Shown piece after piece: positions 32,915 through 39,620 of a stretch of DNA of 64,000 nucleotides (position 1 is the stretch's first letter; each line of letters starts with the position of its first letter). Source of the stretch: Escherichia coli. Lineage in GTDB: Bacteria > Pseudomonadota > Gammaproteobacteria > Enterobacterales > Enterobacteriaceae. The DNA lies in the NCBI RefSeq assembly GCF_003018255.1, contig NZ_CP027440.1; one strand, given 5' to 3'. Position numbers and translations under genes: made by a program. The notes under the pieces are model-generated. The model made no database searches. It saw nothing but the letters and a program-made list of their open reading frames with translations, and was not told the DNA's origin.

Positions 32915-33304
<390 letters not shown>

Positions 33305-33348: not shown

Positions 33349-33813
33349 TCATCGCAAATGATGCACCACCTGATTGCTGCTGCCGCGCCAGATCAGGGAA
33401 GGGTCTTTTAAATCCTGCACAAATTTGCCGTCGACCAGCACGTTAATCAAATCAACAACCTGCATTTGCGCAGCGTTGAGTTCGTCGAGTTTATAGCCTG
33501 TCCACACCCAGATGTCTTTACCCGGACATTCGGCGCGGATGCGTTGTACCAGTTTCAGAATATCCGGCACGTTTTGCGGATGCAGCGGATCGCCGCCGGA
33601 GAGGGAAATACCCTGGCGTTTGATGCGAGTGTCATTCAGATCGTTAATGATCTGGTCTTCCATTGCTTTGGTAAATGGCTGACCGGAATTTACCCGCCAG
33701 GTGCTTTTGTTATAGCAACCGGGGCATTCATGAACACACCCGGAGACAAACAGGGTGCAGCGAGTGCCGGGGCCGTTGACGATGTCGACAGGATAGTACT
33801 GATGATAATTCAT
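33349..33813 (-). CDS. nrdG: anaerobic ribonucleoside-triphosphate reductase activating protein (radical SAM)
   Basis: 154-aa ORF with CxxxCxxC-type radical-SAM cysteines (GCVHECPGC). Confidence 0.9.
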   Translation of the reverse strand: MNYHQYYPVDIVNGPGTRCTLFVSGCVHECPGCYNKSTWRVNSGQPFTKAMEDQIINDLNDTRIKRQGISLSGGDPLHPQNVPDILKLVQRIRAECPGKDIWVWTGYKLDELNAAQMQVVDLINVLVDGKFVQDLKDPSLIWRGSSNQVVHHLR

Positions 33814-33970: not shown

Positions 33971-36109
33971 TTAACCTATCTGCCCATTCCCCAAATGTTT
34001 AACGCGGCGCTTAACTTCTTCCTGCTTACCGGCGTTAAATGGACGTGCATCCGGGCTACCTAAATATCCGCACACGCGGCGAGTCACCGACACACGGGAG
34101 GCGTCATGGTTACCACATTTCGGACAAGTGAAGCCTTTGCTGGTGCACTCGAACTCACCGGTAAAGCCACACTCGTAGCACTCATCGATCGGCGTATTGG
34201 TGCCGTAATACGGTACATGCTGATAGCTGTAATCCCAGACATCTTCCAGCGCCTTCAGGTTGTGCTGAATGTTTGGATACTCGCCGTAGCAAATGAAACC
34301 ACCGTTCGCCAGCGGCGGGTAAGGCGCTTCAAAGTCGATCTTGTCATACGGGTTCACCTTTTTCTCCACATCAAGGTGGAAACTGTTGGTGTAGTAACCT
34401 TTATCGGTCACGCCCGGCACCACGCCAAACTCAGCGGTATCGAGACGGCAGAAGCGGTCGCACAGGTTTTCACTTGGCGTGCTGTAGAGACTGAAACCAT
34501 AACCCGTTTCTTCTTTCCACTGATCCACCGCCTGACGCAGACGCTCAACAATCGCAATACCTTTCGCGCGCAGCTGCTCGTTGTCGTAAACATGCTCGCC
34601 GCCGAACAGCGCGTTAATGGTTTCGTGGATGCCGATGTAACCCAGCGAAATAGACGCACGACCGTTTTTGAAGATTTCAGAAACGTCGTCGTCAGCATTC
34701 AGACGCACGCCACAAGCACCTTCCATATAGAGGATCGGGGCCACGCGCGCTTTCACGCCTTCGAGACGAGCGATACGGGTCATCAACGCCTTACGTGCCA
34801 GCACCAGACGTTCATCCAGCAGCTTCCAGAAGGTGGCTTCATCGCCTTTTGCCTCCAGAGCAATACGCGGCAGGTTCAGGCTGATCACGCCGAGGTTGTT
34901 ACGACCATCGTGGATCTGCTCGCCGTTTTCATTTTCCCACACGCCGAGGAAGCTGCGGCAGCCCATCGGGGTTTTAAACGAACCGGTGACTTTCACTACC
35001 TGATCGTAGTTCAGGATATCCGGATACATGCGCTTGCTTGCGCACTCCAGCGCCAGCTGTTTGATGTCGTAGTTCGGATCGCCTTTTTTATGGTTCAGGC
35101 CATCGCGAATCGCAAACACCAGTTTCGGGAACACCGCCGTTTTACGGTTTTTACCGAGGCCGGCGATACGGTTACGCAGGATAGATTCCTGAATCAGGCG
35201 CGACTCCCAGCTGGTGCCCAGACCAAAACCAAAGGTTACAAACGGCGTTTGACCGTTGGCGGTGTGCAGGGTGTTTACTTCGTACTCCAGCGACTGGAAG
35301 GCATCGTAGCACTCTTTGATGGTACGAGAGTTAGCGTAGCCTTCGGCGTCCGGGATGTTCCACTCTTCTGCGGTCTTGCGATGTTTGTTGTAGCTGGCGG
35401 TGACAAACGGTGCCAGCACTTCATCGATACGGTTAATGGTGGTGCCGCCATAAATATGGCTGGCGACCTGGGCAATAATCTGCGCAGTTACCGCGGTTGC
35501 CGTAGAGATCGACTTCGGCGGTTCAATCTCGGCGTTCCCCATTTTAAAGCCCTGGGTCAGCATGCCTTTCAGGTCGATCAACATGCAGTTGAACATCGGG
35601 AAGAACGGTGAGTAATCGAGATCGTGATAGTGAATATCACCACGTTCATGTGCCTGCACCACGTCACGCGGCAGCAGGTGCTGGCGTGCATAGTGTTTAG
35701 CCACAATCCCGGCCAGCAGGTCGCGCTGGGTTGGAATCACCTTGCTGTCTTTGTTGGCGTTTTCGTTGAGCAACGAGGCGTTGGTCTGCTCAACCAGACC
35801 ACGGATCTCCTGATTCAGGCGACCGCGTTTTTCACGTTCAATGTCGCGATCGTGACGGTACTCGATGTAAGCACGAGCCAGTTGTTTGTATGGACCCGAC
35901 ATAAGCTGGTTTTCAACGGCGGTCTGGATCTCGTTGATATCCACCTGGCTGCGGCCCTGCATCTGCTCGCTGACAACCGCGGCAACAGTGGCGCAATAAT
36001 CTGCATCATCGACTTCCGCTGCTTTAGCTGCACGCAGAATCGCTTCTTTGATGCGCTCTGATTTAAACGGCACTTTGCAGCCGTCTCGTTTCATCACATG
36101 CGGTGTCAT
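33971..36109 (-). CDS. nrdD: anaerobic ribonucleoside-triphosphate reductase (class III)
   Basis: 712-aa ORF with ATP-cone N-terminus and C-terminal glycyl-radical motif region. Confidence 0.95.
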   Translation of the reverse strand: MTPHVMKRDGCKVPFKSERIKEAILRAAKAAEVDDADYCATVAAVVSEQMQGRSQVDINEIQTAVENQLMSGPYKQLARAYIEYRHDRDIEREKRGRLNQEIRGLVEQTNASLLNENANKDSKVIPTQRDLLAGIVAKHYARQHLLPRDVVQAHERGDIHYHDLDYSPFFPMFNCMLIDLKGMLTQGFKMGNAEIEPPKSISTATAVTAQIIAQVASHIYGGTTINRIDEVLAPFVTASYNKHRKTAEEWNIPDAEGYANSRTIKECYDAFQSLEYEVNTLHTANGQTPFVTFGFGLGTSWESRLIQESILRNRIAGLGKNRKTAVFPKLVFAIRDGLNHKKGDPNYDIKQLALECASKRMYPDILNYDQVVKVTGSFKTPMGCRSFLGVWENENGEQIHDGRNNLGVISLNLPRIALEAKGDEATFWKLLDERLVLARKALMTRIARLEGVKARVAPILYMEGACGVRLNADDDVSEIFKNGRASISLGYIGIHETINALFGGEHVYDNEQLRAKGIAIVERLRQAVDQWKEETGYGFSLYSTPSENLCDRFCRLDTAEFGVVPGVTDKGYYTNSFHLDVEKKVNPYDKIDFEAPYPPLANGGFICYGEYPNIQHNLKALEDVWDYSYQHVPYYGTNTPIDECYECGFTGEFECTSKGFTCPKCGNHDASRVSVTRRVCGYLGSPDARPFNAGKQEEVKRRVKHLGNGQIG

Positions 36110-36270
36110 GATCGCTCCATATTTTTAAGAACAGGTTATCCACAGAAATTGGGAAAGGTGTTTTCCGGTTTTTTCGTTTCGTTTTCCGGCGCTTTCCGCA
36201 ATCGCCATCCGCTTATCCACAACGCCGCACCTTTTTCGTGGGGAGTTGTAGTAGCAATTATAGTCGATTA

Positions 36271-36317
36271 ATACAACATATTGGGTCGGGACGCATTTTA
36301 AAGTCTATATATAGTGC
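36271..36317 (-). promoter_or_regulatory. two NrdR-box-like 16-mers (36271-36286 and 36302-36317) spanning the predicted nrdDG promoter
   Basis: ATACAACATATTGGGT and AGTCTATATATAGTGC, each about 13/16 to my remembered NrdR-box consensus acaCwAtATaTwGtgt, spaced 31 bp start-to-start; -10-like TAAAAT (minus strand) at 36295-36300. Confidence 0.4.
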
Positions 36318-36358
36318 TTTGCATCAAGGATGTTTGAACTTTTTTTGATGTAGCTCAA
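36314..36358 (-). promoter_or_regulatory. tandem FNR sites (36314-36327 and 36345-36358) of the nrdDG promoter
   Basis: TTGATgtagCTCAA (9/10 to TTGAT-N4-ATCAA) and gtgctTTGCATCAA (perfect right half); centres 31 bp apart, matching the -64.5/-33.5 FNR architecture I recall for nrdDG. Confidence 0.5.
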
Positions 36359-36440
36359 AGTAAAAAGCAGAGCGTACGGATGACGGGCGCTACAGCGTTA
36401 TGTAAATTTTTTAATGAATTTTTTGATTATAAAATCAACA

Positions 36441-36471
36441 TGCTGAAAGGCAAAACCCCGGAATGACCAGT
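36441..36471 (-). terminator. intrinsic terminator after treC
   Basis: On minus strand CCCCGG-taatactggtcatt-CCGGGG followed by TTTTG. Confidence 0.55.
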
Positions 36472-36493
36472 ATTACCGGGGCTTAGCGGATAC

Positions 36494-38149
36494 TTACTTC
36501 TGTAACCACCAGACAGCCTCAAAAGGCCGTAAAGTCATGGCACAGGGTTGTGGTGAGGCTTCTTCGTAGTTATGCATCACAAGCTGCCAGTTGCCGAGCA
36601 TTTTCCCTGGCTGCCAGGGTTGGGTCTCACGGCTAAGGTTGGCAATGACCAGTAAGGTTTGCCCCTTCCACTCACGGCGATAGCACCACAATACAGGGCT
36701 GTTTGGCAGCAGATCCTGGTAATCGCCCCATGTCAGGACGGCTTCTTGCTTACGCAGTGCGATTAACTTTTGGTAGGTGTAAAACACCGAGGACTCATCG
36801 GCCAGCGCTGCTTCTACGTTGATTTCCTGATAGTTATCGCCCAGGCCAATCCACGGTTCGCCAGCCGTAAACCCGGCATTATCGCCGTTGCTCCATTGCA
36901 TGGGTGTGCGACTGTTGTCACGGGATTTACTGGCGAGGATTGCCAATAACTCGTCGGCATCACGACCATCGTTGCGCAGCTCGGCAAACATATTGAGGCT
37001 CTCCACGTCGCGATAGTCAGTAATGCGCGTGAAATGCGGGTTGGTCATGCCAATCTCTTCGCCCTGGTAGATATACGGCGTTCCCTGCATGCCATGCAGC
37101 ACCATCGCCAGCATTTTTGCCGCAGGCACGCGGTATTCACCTTCATCACCAAAGCGAGAAACAATGCGCGGCTGATCGTGGTTACACCAGAACAAGGCAT
37201 TCCATGCCACGTTGTGCATTCCTTGTTGCCAGTGGCGGAACAATGTTTTCAACGCCACAAAGTCAGGTTTAGCCAGCGTCCATTTTTCACCACTGGGATA
37301 ATCGACTTTCAGGTGATGAAAATTAAAGGTCATCGACAATTCACTGCCTGTCAGTGTCGCATATCGCTGGCAATGCTCAAGGCTGGTGGAGGACATTTCA
37401 CCTACGGTCATTAACCTGCGTGGCGTAAACACATCGCGGTTCATCTCGTGCAAAAACTCGTGTGCTCGTGGCCCGTCGGTGTAGAAGCGACGCCCGTCGC
37501 CATCCAGGTCATCAGGGAAACGCGGGTCTTTGGAGATCAGATTCACCACATCCAGGCGCAACCCGTCGACCCCACGATCGGCCCAGAACTCACAGACTTT
37601 TTTCAGCTCTGCGCGTACCGCTGGATTCTCCCAGTTGAGATCCGCCTGTTCTGGTGCAAAGAGATGCAAATAGTACTGTTCGCTTTCCGCATGCCAGCGC
37701 CACGCACTACCGCCAAATTTTGAACGCCAGTTGTTCGGTGGCGTTTCTGATTCTCCATCGCGCCAGATATAAAACTGGCGGTAAGGGCTTGCTTTGTTCA
37801 GCGCCTCGCGAAACCAGGCATGTTGGGTAGAGGTATGGTTAAACACCATATCGAGAATGATACGAATCCCGCGCGATTTTGCCTGTGTCACCAGTTCGTC
37901 AAAATCGTCCAGCGTGCCGTAGGTGGGATCAATAGCCGTATAGTTCGCTACGTCGTAACCGTTATCAACCTGGGGAGAGACATAAAAGGGGGTTAGCCAG
38001 ATGGCATCAACGCCCAGTTTATGCAGATAGTCCAGGCGCTGGATAACGCCACGTAAATCGCCGGTGCCGCTACCCGTGGTGTCCTGAAAACTCTTTGGAT
38101 AAATCTGGTAGATAACGCCGTTTTGCCACCAGTGGGGAAGATTAGTCAT
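36494..38149 (-). CDS. treC: trehalose-6-phosphate hydrolase
   Basis: ORF 36494..38296; start MTNLPHWWQNGVIYQIYPKSF at 38149 gives 551 aa; GH13 family. Confidence 0.9.
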   Translation of the reverse strand: MTNLPHWWQNGVIYQIYPKSFQDTTGSGTGDLRGVIQRLDYLHKLGVDAIWLTPFYVSPQVDNGYDVANYTAIDPTYGTLDDFDELVTQAKSRGIRIILDMVFNHTSTQHAWFREALNKASPYRQFYIWRDGESETPPNNWRSKFGGSAWRWHAESEQYYLHLFAPEQADLNWENPAVRAELKKVCEFWADRGVDGLRLDVVNLISKDPRFPDDLDGDGRRFYTDGPRAHEFLHEMNRDVFTPRRLMTVGEMSSTSLEHCQRYATLTGSELSMTFNFHHLKVDYPSGEKWTLAKPDFVALKTLFRHWQQGMHNVAWNALFWCNHDQPRIVSRFGDEGEYRVPAAKMLAMVLHGMQGTPYIYQGEEIGMTNPHFTRITDYRDVESLNMFAELRNDGRDADELLAILASKSRDNSRTPMQWSNGDNAGFTAGEPWIGLGDNYQEINVEAALADESSVFYTYQKLIALRKQEAVLTWGDYQDLLPNSPVLWCYRREWKGQTLLVIANLSRETQPWQPGKMLGNWQLVMHNYEEASPQPCAMTLRPFEAVWWLQK

Positions 38150-38198
38150 TACGTTATTCCTGCAAATGCGAGGGGGCGCAATTGCGCCCCGAAGAAAA

Positions 38199-39620
38199 TT
38201 AAACAATGTCCAGCGTGCCCAGGCGGTATTTCCGCTGATAGATAAACGAGGTGAGTACAATCGGGATGATGATGGCGATAGCCATTGCCAGCGCAAACAC
38301 CTGCCAGTAGCTCGGTTGAATCGAGAGAATTCCCGGCAGGCCGCCTACGCCGATGCCATTCGCCATAACGCCGTTCAGGCCGCATAGCAATCCTGCCAGA
38401 CCAGAACCAATCATCGCGCACAGCATCGGGAAGCGATATTTCAGGTTGATGCCGTACATAGCAGGCTCAGTGACTCCAAGCCAGGCGGAGATAGCGGCAG
38501 GCACGGAGATCTCGCGTTCATTGTGCTTGCGGCTGGAAATGATAATGCCTATCACGGCGGAACCCTGAGCGATATTCGACAGCGCAATCAGCGGCCACAC
38601 TGGCGTACCACCCATGCTTTGAATCATCTGCAAATCAATAGCAAGCGTGGTCTGATGTACGCCGGTGATCACCAGCGGGGCGTACAGGAAGCCAAACAAT
38701 GCCGCGCCAATCGGAGCAAAGCTGCCGGTCATCAGGTGACGTACCGCAAAGGCAACGCCATCGCCAATCATGCGACCAAACGGACCAATCAGCGCATGGG
38801 CGAGGAACACCGCGAGGATCAGCGAACAAACGGGCACCACCACCAGATAGAGGTAATCCGGCACGATGCGCTTAAGACGAGTTTCAATAACGCCCAGCGC
38901 CAGCCCGGCTAACAGTGCCGGGATCACCTGCGCCTGATAGCCCACTTTGGCGATGCTGAACATGCCAAAGTCCCACACTTCCGGCAGCTGCTGCCCGAGC
39001 AGATAAGCGTTCATCAGCTGTGGAGAAACCAGCGTTACGCCAAGCACGATACCAAGGATCGGCGTGCCGCCCATTTTTTTCACCGCTGACCAGCAAATCC
39101 CGACCGGCAGGTAGAAGAAGATCGCTTCACCGATCAACCACAGAAAATCGTAGATCGTTTGCAGGGAAGGGTACATTTGCGCCAGCGTTTGACCGTTGCT
39201 CATGGGCAAATCGCCGATCACATTGCGAAAACCGAGGATCAAACCGCCGCTAATCAACGCGGGCAGCAACGGGAAGAAAATCTCCGCGAAATGAGAGATC
39301 AACTGCTCATGCCATTTCATATTCTGCCGGGCGGCTTTTTTTACCTGCTCTTTATCAACCTGCGCCTGTCCGGTTGACGCTATCAGTGCTTGATAGTAAT
39401 CACCCACGTTGGTGCCAATCACCACCTGAAATTGCCCGGCATTGGTGAAACAGCCTTTCACCATGGGGAGTTGCTCAATTTCTTTCGGTCTGGCATTGGC
39501 CGGTTGGTTGAGGACAAAGCGCAGACGAGTAATACAGTGGCTCACCGTCGCAATATTGCCGCGCCCGCCGACCAGTTCAATCAACCGATCGATATCCGTT
39601 TGGTTTATTTTGCTCATCAT
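38199..39620 (-). CDS. treB: PTS trehalose-specific EIIBC component
   Basis: 473-aa ORF with N-terminal EIIB cysteine motif (HCITRLR) and EIIC membrane domain. Confidence 0.9.
   Translation of the reverse strand: MMSKINQTDIDRLIELVGGRGNIATVSHCITRLRFVLNQPANARPKEIEQLPMVKGCFTNAGQFQVVIGTNVGDYYQALIASTGQAQVDKEQVKKAARQNMKWHEQLISHFAEIFFPLLPALISGGLILGFRNVIGDLPMSNGQTLAQMYPSLQTIYDFLWLIGEAIFFYLPVGICWSAVKKMGGTPILGIVLGVTLVSPQLMNAYLLGQQLPEVWDFGMFSIAKVGYQAQVIPALLAGLALGVIETRLKRIVPDYLYLVVVPVCSLILAVFLAHALIGPFGRMIGDGVAFAVRHLMTGSFAPIGAALFGFLYAPLVITGVHQTTLAIDLQMIQSMGGTPVWPLIALSNIAQGSAVIGIIISSRKHNEREISVPAAISAWLGVTEPAMYGINLKYRFPMLCAMIGSGLAGLLCGLNGVMANGIGVGGLPGILSIQPSYWQVFALAMAIAIIIPIVLTSFIYQRKYRLGTLDIV

Follow-up and report, generated by a model that had tools for sequence, protein, structure and literature searches.

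The nrdDG promoter region of an Escherichia coli strain: two FNR sites and two NrdR boxes, with a predicted point of cross-talk between them and DnaA boxes in the leader

The products of the nrdDG operon are the anaerobic class III ribonucleotide reductase and the activase of this enzyme. The FNR sites of the E. coli nrdDG promoter were reportedly published in 2003 by Boston and Atlung and in 2008 by Roca et al., and its NrdR boxes are said to have been published in 2005, 2007 (Torrents et al.) and 2025 (Rozman Grinberg et al.). Illava et al. 2023 also deals with the K-12 promoter. Class I activation calls for a site on the correct face of the helix, centred near -61.5, -71.5, -82.5 or a corresponding position further upstream. 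Canonical FNR promoters share with nrdDG the TTGAT-N4-ATCAA site, a good -10 without a -35, anaerobic activation and a ChIP-seq peak, but they differ from it in geometry, since canonical class II sites are centred at -41.5 and class I sites near -61.5, whereas those of nrdDG are centred at -64.5 and -33.5. FNR was found at -41.5 ± 4 in 19 of 23 activated promoters with known starts, and a single class I example was placed at -60.5 (Myers et al. 2013). For nrdDG, anoxic SAXS has shown a 54-mer carrying two FNR dimers, and EMSA results are available for each site; the SAXS study numbers site 1 at -33.5 and site 2 at -64.5, and calls the way in which RNA polymerase is activated from these positions 'a remaining mystery'. 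According to this literature, FNR has a higher affinity for site 2 than for site 1 (Roca et al. 2008, as cited in the SAXS paper), the -64.5 site is both necessary and sufficient, and the -33.5 site boosts output only when the -64.5 site is occupied.

The second regulator of the operon, NrdR, has also been studied directly on this promoter. E. coli NrdR binds an nrdDG 57-mer with a Kd of about 160 nM when loaded with ATP-dATP and of 152 nM with ADP-dATP, and does not bind with ATP alone; the two nrdDG boxes are described in the NrdR-binding study as 15 bp apart. With ATP/dATP, the affinities for nrdDG, nrdHIEF and nrdAB are similar (Kd 113-160 nM), and the nrdHIEF and nrdAB (boxes 1+2) operators resemble that of nrdDG in having two 16-bp boxes with AT-rich cores, 15 bp apart, which overlap the core promoter. 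Two features set nrdDG apart from them. Its box 1 overlaps an activator site, FNR-1, by 4 bp, and both of its boxes agree with the consensus at 13/16 positions, whereas box 2 of nrdAB and box 2 of nrdHIEF reach 10-11/16 by our own count on the published probes. In Salmonella Typhimurium, two FNR sites and two NrdR boxes are found upstream of nrdDG in the same order and with the same spacing (Panosa et al. 2010). Mutation of either Salmonella box derepresses nrdDG in vivo, and the authors remarked on the overlap between box 1 and the FNR site.

Here we analysed a stretch of 64,000 nt of an E. coli genome, called the window throughout, in which treC and nrdD are separated by an intergenic region of 384 bp. 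The three genes that define the locus all lie on the minus strand:

38296..36494, minus strand: treC, upstream of the nrdDG promoter
33971..36109, minus strand: nrdD coding sequence, 712 aa, the first regulated gene
33349..33813, minus strand: nrdG coding sequence, 154 aa, the second gene of the operon

When 401 bases around the promoter were compared with the 5,426 complete E. coli genomes, 5,425 contained a match, annotated in each genome between treC and nrdD ('anaerobic ribonucleoside-triphosphate reductase'). The 101-bp promoter core is at least 95% identical in all complete E. coli genomes except 5. This intergenic region is that of the E. coli nrdDG promoter. As a separate observation on this neighbourhood, a 128-aa open reading frame at the position of cybC (cytochrome b562), at 32918-33304 on the plus strand, is intact; in K-12 MG1655 this gene is annotated as a pseudogene.

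The promoter itself contains the following elements, listed in the direction of transcription:

36358..36345, minus strand: FNR-2, TTGAGCTACATCAA, centre 36351.5 (-64.5; spans -71..-58), agreeing with the FNR consensus at 9/10 positions
36327..36314, minus strand: FNR-1, TTGATGCAAAGCAC, centre 36320.5 (-33.5; spans -40..-27), agreeing at 8/10 positions
36317..36302, minus strand: NrdR box 1, GCACTATATATAGACT (-30..-15), agreeing with ACACWATATATWGTGT at 13/16 positions
36300..36295, minus strand: -10 hexamer TAAAAT (-13..-8), read from the sequence
36287, minus strand: inferred +1, back-calculated from the -33.5/-64.5 numbering given in later papers that cite the primary work; G here, A in K-12
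36286..36271, minus strand: NrdR box 2, ACCCAATATGTTGTAT (+2..+17), agreeing with ACACWATATATWGTGT at 13/16 positions

An earlier note, made from the letters alone, had placed FNR-like sites 31 bp apart at 36351.5 and 36320.5, a TAAAAT -10 on the minus strand at 36295-36300, and two 16-mers with 13/16 matches to an NrdR-box consensus. Its coordinates, strand and counts were recovered exactly. That first reading missed an overlap of 4 bp, at 36317..36314, between FNR-1 and NrdR box 1. The two boxes are separated by a linker of 15 bp and lie 31 bp apart from centre to centre, the same distance as that between the FNR centres, and the centre of FNR-1 lies 11 bp from that of box 1, which puts all four sites in helical phase.

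The locus is the same as that of K-12, and the FNR sites, the NrdR boxes, the -10, the spacings and the DnaA boxes of the leader are base-for-base identical in the two. Within the promoter core only two positions differ: 36338, a position of the FNR spacer that varies across genera (C in K-12, T in the window), and 36287, the linker base used as +1 (A in K-12, G in the window). The published FNR 54-mer maps to 36362..36309, with 36338, between the two sites, as its one mismatch, and the published NrdR 57-mer maps to 36322..36266, with 36287, in the linker, as its one mismatch. Both substitutions fall at what would be non-contact positions and should be neutral, and the comparison confirms, as far as sequence can, that the promoter core of the present strain would be functionally equivalent to that of K-12. 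Set beside these binding data, as the earlier note had proposed, its FNR sites prove to be those of a 54-mer that takes up two FNR dimers and differs from the window by one spacer SNP, and its NrdR boxes, which it had assigned by consensus only, prove to be the validated ones, lying within the 57-mer that NrdR binds and that is likewise one SNP away from the window. The four-site layout is thus already known and holds nothing new, all four sites having been mapped experimentally years earlier. Our main reading, which we hold with a probability of roughly 93%, is that the region is a canonical sigma-70 nrdDG promoter, activated by FNR and repressed by NrdR, with cross-talk between FNR-1 and box 1 and a further regulatory layer of DnaA boxes in the leader.

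It could be argued that such motif matches are chance occurrences in AT-rich intergenic DNA. Counted against the FNR consensus, a 14-bp inverted repeat TTGAT-N4-ATCAA from which FNR-2 deviates by one mismatch and FNR-1 by two, matches with at most two mismatches are indeed common (46 observed in the window, 32 expected), and 12 of 200 dinucleotide-preserving shuffles (6%) contained a pair as good as this one at a distance of 20-45 bp, so the FNR pair is only weakly significant by consensus counting alone. The matrix scans that the earlier note had proposed speak against chance. With a matrix built from 62 sites that were both predicted and occupied in ChIP-seq (Myers et al. 2013), from which nrdD was left out, FNR-2 scores 17.8 bits and ranks first among the 63,987 positions of the window, while FNR-1 scores 10.7 bits and ranks seventh, so that both combine an inverted repeat with a high matrix score. 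The nrdD site given in Table S6 of the same study, TTGATGTAGCTCAA, is the plus-strand reading of FNR-2 and is identical in K-12; its PatSer score of 15.68 (ln p -14.45) is among the best of the genome, and the K-12 ChIP-seq summit falls on FNR-2, within a few bases of its centre. FNR-2 is also the sole nrdD entry in that genome-wide prediction, FNR-1 being below its threshold.

Chance fares no better with the NrdR boxes. Boxes 1 and 2 are the sole matches to ACACWATATATWGTGT with at most three mismatches in the 64 kb, where 0.47 were expected, and no pair 28-34 bp apart was seen in any of 200 dinucleotide-preserving shuffles. A matrix made from the nrdD-upstream boxes of families other than Enterobacteriaceae, 38 distinct sequences in all, ranks box 1 first and box 2 second in the window, and a tiny matrix, made from the three boxes of E. 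coli nrdAB and nrdHIEF, ranks box 2 first and box 1 third. The pair has the sequence and spacing of an NrdR operator (two 16-bp boxes of the form acaCwAtATaTwgtgt, a linker of 15-16 bp and centres 31-32 bp apart), and it lies in the promoter of a ribonucleotide reductase operon, where it brackets the -10 and the +1, 161 bp upstream of the nrdD ATG. Moreover, the sites are fixed across some 50 genera while their flanks drift, and the literature holds direct binding data on the same sequences. Conservation and published binding have already refuted the idea of chance, and we give it practically no weight.

The extent of this conservation was measured on 80 nrdD loci of Enterobacterales, collected from species-representative genomes by a scan for the NrdD N-terminus, 53 of them from Enterobacteriaceae. 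In 46 of these 53, neither FNR site scores below 10 bits, and their distances from the centre of box 1 are constant: FNR-2 precedes it by 42 bp (41 bp in a few cases) and FNR-1 by 11 bp. The spacing of the NrdR boxes is 31-32 bp throughout the 53. Aligned over 27 genera of the family, the sites appear as conserved islands amid drifting sequence. The other families show a simpler arrangement: in Yersinia, Serratia, Pectobacterium, Dickeya, Edwardsiella, Hafnia, Providencia and Budvicia, the NrdR pair is accompanied by a single FNR site, which in most of the loci outside Enterobacteriaceae (L055-L083) precedes the box 1 centre by 28-29, 40-41 or 51 bp. These offsets step by one helical turn, which suggests that the FNR site may have been moved by whole turns during evolution, with the NrdR pair remaining stationary.

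The distribution of strength between the two FNR sites is less uniform than their positions. At 36317, the first base shared by FNR-1 and box 1, E. coli and E. albertii have G, and 42 of the 53 Enterobacteriaceae loci have T, which is the state of Salmonella and Klebsiella; in these 42, FNR-1 averages 15.3 bits and FNR-2 13.6. In three further loci the base is A, and there FNR-1 is lost. The stronger sequence TTGATGCAAATCAC occupies the FNR-1 position in 42 of the 53 loci. In Salmonella enterica subsp. arizonae, for instance, FNR-1 carries this strong sequence and scores higher than FNR-2 (15.4 against 14.5 bits), while in E. coli the order is reversed (10.7 against 17.8 bits). E. coli and E. 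albertii have a pattern of FNR strength opposite to that of most genera. Across genera the scores of the two sites are negatively correlated (Spearman rho -0.30, p = 0.03), a value calculated with phylogeny ignored, so that compensation between FNR-1 and FNR-2 is offered here as a hint only.

How could FNR activate transcription from these positions? The earlier note had read the two sites as class I plus class II activation at -64.5 and -33.5. The positions stand, in agreement with the literature; the class II assignment does not, as FNR-1 at -33.5, counted from the published start, lies outside the class II range of -41.5 ± 4. FNR-2, with the same start, is 3 bp away from the class I position at -61.5. 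We also asked whether FNR-2 could itself be the class II site, at -41.5. The start would then fall inside NrdR box 1, and the -10 that it needs reads GCAAAG (GCAAAT in relatives), which does not have the key A2; for these two reasons this reading was rejected. Under the main reading, anaerobic activation would depend on dimeric [4Fe-4S] FNR bound to the strong upstream site, FNR-2, most likely acting as a class I activator that recruits the C-terminal domain of the RNA polymerase alpha subunit to a promoter without a -35. A second FNR dimer would occupy the weaker FNR-1, three helical turns downstream on the same face of the DNA, and would raise output only with FNR-2 occupied, in line with the published dependence. 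Between the two sites, at 36328-36344 (-57..-41), an A-tract follows directly after FNR-2. The same segment contains a CAAAC(A/T)T block that is invariant across the 27 genera, and it is where an UP-element or a contact with the alpha C-terminal domain would be expected.

Repression would come from NrdR, whose binding is documented in the literature and which, as a tetramer lying over -30..+17, would probably block RNA polymerase by occlusion. FNR-1 and box 1 have 36317..36314 in common, and it is tempting to speculate that FNR-1 acts by anti-repression, that is, that FNR bound there, with help from FNR-2 three turns away, keeps NrdR off the promoter while all direct activation comes from FNR-2. 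This idea would account for the fact that the boost from FNR-1 requires FNR-2 to be occupied, as reported in the literature, and a dimer over -40..-27, which is not a class II position, would clash with sigma region 4. The variation of the shared base points the same way, T favouring FNR, A favouring NrdR and G being the third state. Similarly, the Salmonella box 1 mutant gives higher expression than deletion of nrdR, for which the authors propose competition between FNR and NrdR; however, that mutation may also have changed FNR-1 or the promoter spacer. We therefore consider anti-repression as the sole role of FNR-1 unlikely, although it deserves to be kept in mind, and we retain the main reading, in which FNR-1 contributes to activation and its occupancy and that of box 1 are probably mutually exclusive.

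The numbering of -64.5 and -33.5 depends on the start site. A sigma-70 promoter is defined by a -10 with A2 and T6, some 7 nt before a mapped start, together with a -35 or with an activator that takes its place. In the 53 Enterobacteriaceae loci the -10 reads TAAAAT in 34, TAGAAT in 17 and TAACAT in two, hence TAnnAT in every one, and 36287 is occupied by a purine, with G as the majority state, in all loci of the family that were aligned. The supplements of Kim 2012 and, for Salmonella, Ramachandran 2012 contain no start-site entry for nrdD. A generic scan for promoters and terminators did not call the nrdDG promoter, which it misses because there is no -35; its sole call was the allele-specific site further upstream that is described below. 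Within the leader there is a second hexamer of the -10 type:

36262..36257, minus strand: TATAAT (+26..+31), 8 nt downstream of NrdR box 2

A TAYNAT sequence is present at this position in 45 of the 53 Enterobacteriaceae loci, and no -35 or extended -10 (TG) motif was found upstream of it. The hexamer might act as a second promoter or a sigma-dependent pause element, or be a feature of the leader RNA.

If it is a promoter, the published numbering would be wrong or incomplete, and a second nrdDG transcript would start near the A at 36249. FNR-1 would then stand at the class I position -71.5 and FNR-2 at -102.5, with NrdR box 2 over the -35 region; such an arrangement, in favour of which the conservation of TAYNAT speaks, would explain the stimulation from the '-33.5' site. 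If true, it would also explain why FNR-1 is the stronger FNR site in most Enterobacteriaceae. Several facts weigh against this proposal. A single start, consistent with TAAAAT, is reported in the literature, and the reported necessity and sufficiency of the upstream FNR site agree with the first promoter. Furthermore, the first -10 is the better conserved of the two, the TATAAT has neither a -35 nor a TG extension, and, since it lies within the transcribed leader, its conservation may have another cause. We judge a second promoter to be very improbable and keep the single start near 36287, even though the main reading leaves the conserved hexamer at +26..+31 unexplained.

In the nrdD leader, 178 nt long, lie three DnaA boxes, two perfect and one weak, arranged as a single and a double box:

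36213..36221 (+67..+75 of the mRNA), plus strand: perfect DnaA box, TTATCCACA, invariant in 27/27 aligned Enterobacteriaceae
36125..36144 (+144..+163), plus strand: double DnaA box, TTAAGAACA-gg-TTATCCACA, its perfect 9-mer found in 26/27 aligned Enterobacteriaceae

The one exception at the downstream perfect 9-mer, locus L047, differs by one base, and the flanks of both boxes are unconserved. These leader boxes have already been published: a 62-fold DnaA ChIP-seq peak was reported at nrdD (PMC11317965), and the double box given for it is identical to 36125..36144. A different arrangement, in which NrdR box 2 is abutted by a direct double box, TTATCCACA-N3-4-CATCCACA, is seen in Yersinia, Serratia, Pectobacterium, Dickeya, Edwardsiella and Budvicia. 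Given the published binding, the boxes may provide a putative third input to the promoter, linked to replication. An Rfam scan of 36000-36600 matched no family, and thus no known RNA element is seen in the leader.

Upstream of the promoter, the strain carries a rare allele. Compared with K-12, E. albertii and others, it shows a 9-bp deletion and several substitutions at about 36415-36455, a segment that follows the treC terminator and precedes the nrdDG promoter. Over 36100-36500, identity to the window is at least 99% in 75 of 5,425 E. coli genomes and 90-95% in 5,293. The allele creates a promoter-like sequence, TTGCCT-16-TATAAT (36453..36426, minus strand), that points at nrdDG. A palindrome, TTGATT-N4-AATCAA, arises from it as well, with a spacing that is wrong for FNR. 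The idea that this palindrome (TTGATTTTATAATCAA, about 36436-36421) might be a third FNR site was rejected: its half-sites are spaced by 6 instead of 4, and its score is not one of the three best that the FNR matrix gives over the 500 bp preceding nrdD, the lowest of these three being only 4.0 bits.

Our analysis shows that a reader given the sequence alone can recover the four-site regulatory layout of this promoter with exact coordinates. Moreover, because FNR-1 and box 1 overlap by 4 bp, FNR and NrdR would be expected to exclude each other there, and this exclusion would couple the oxygen signal to the signal from the dNTP pool. Finally, the FNR-1/box 1 overlap and the second -10-like hexamer both bear on the geometry by which FNR may activate nrdDG from -64.5 and -33.5.
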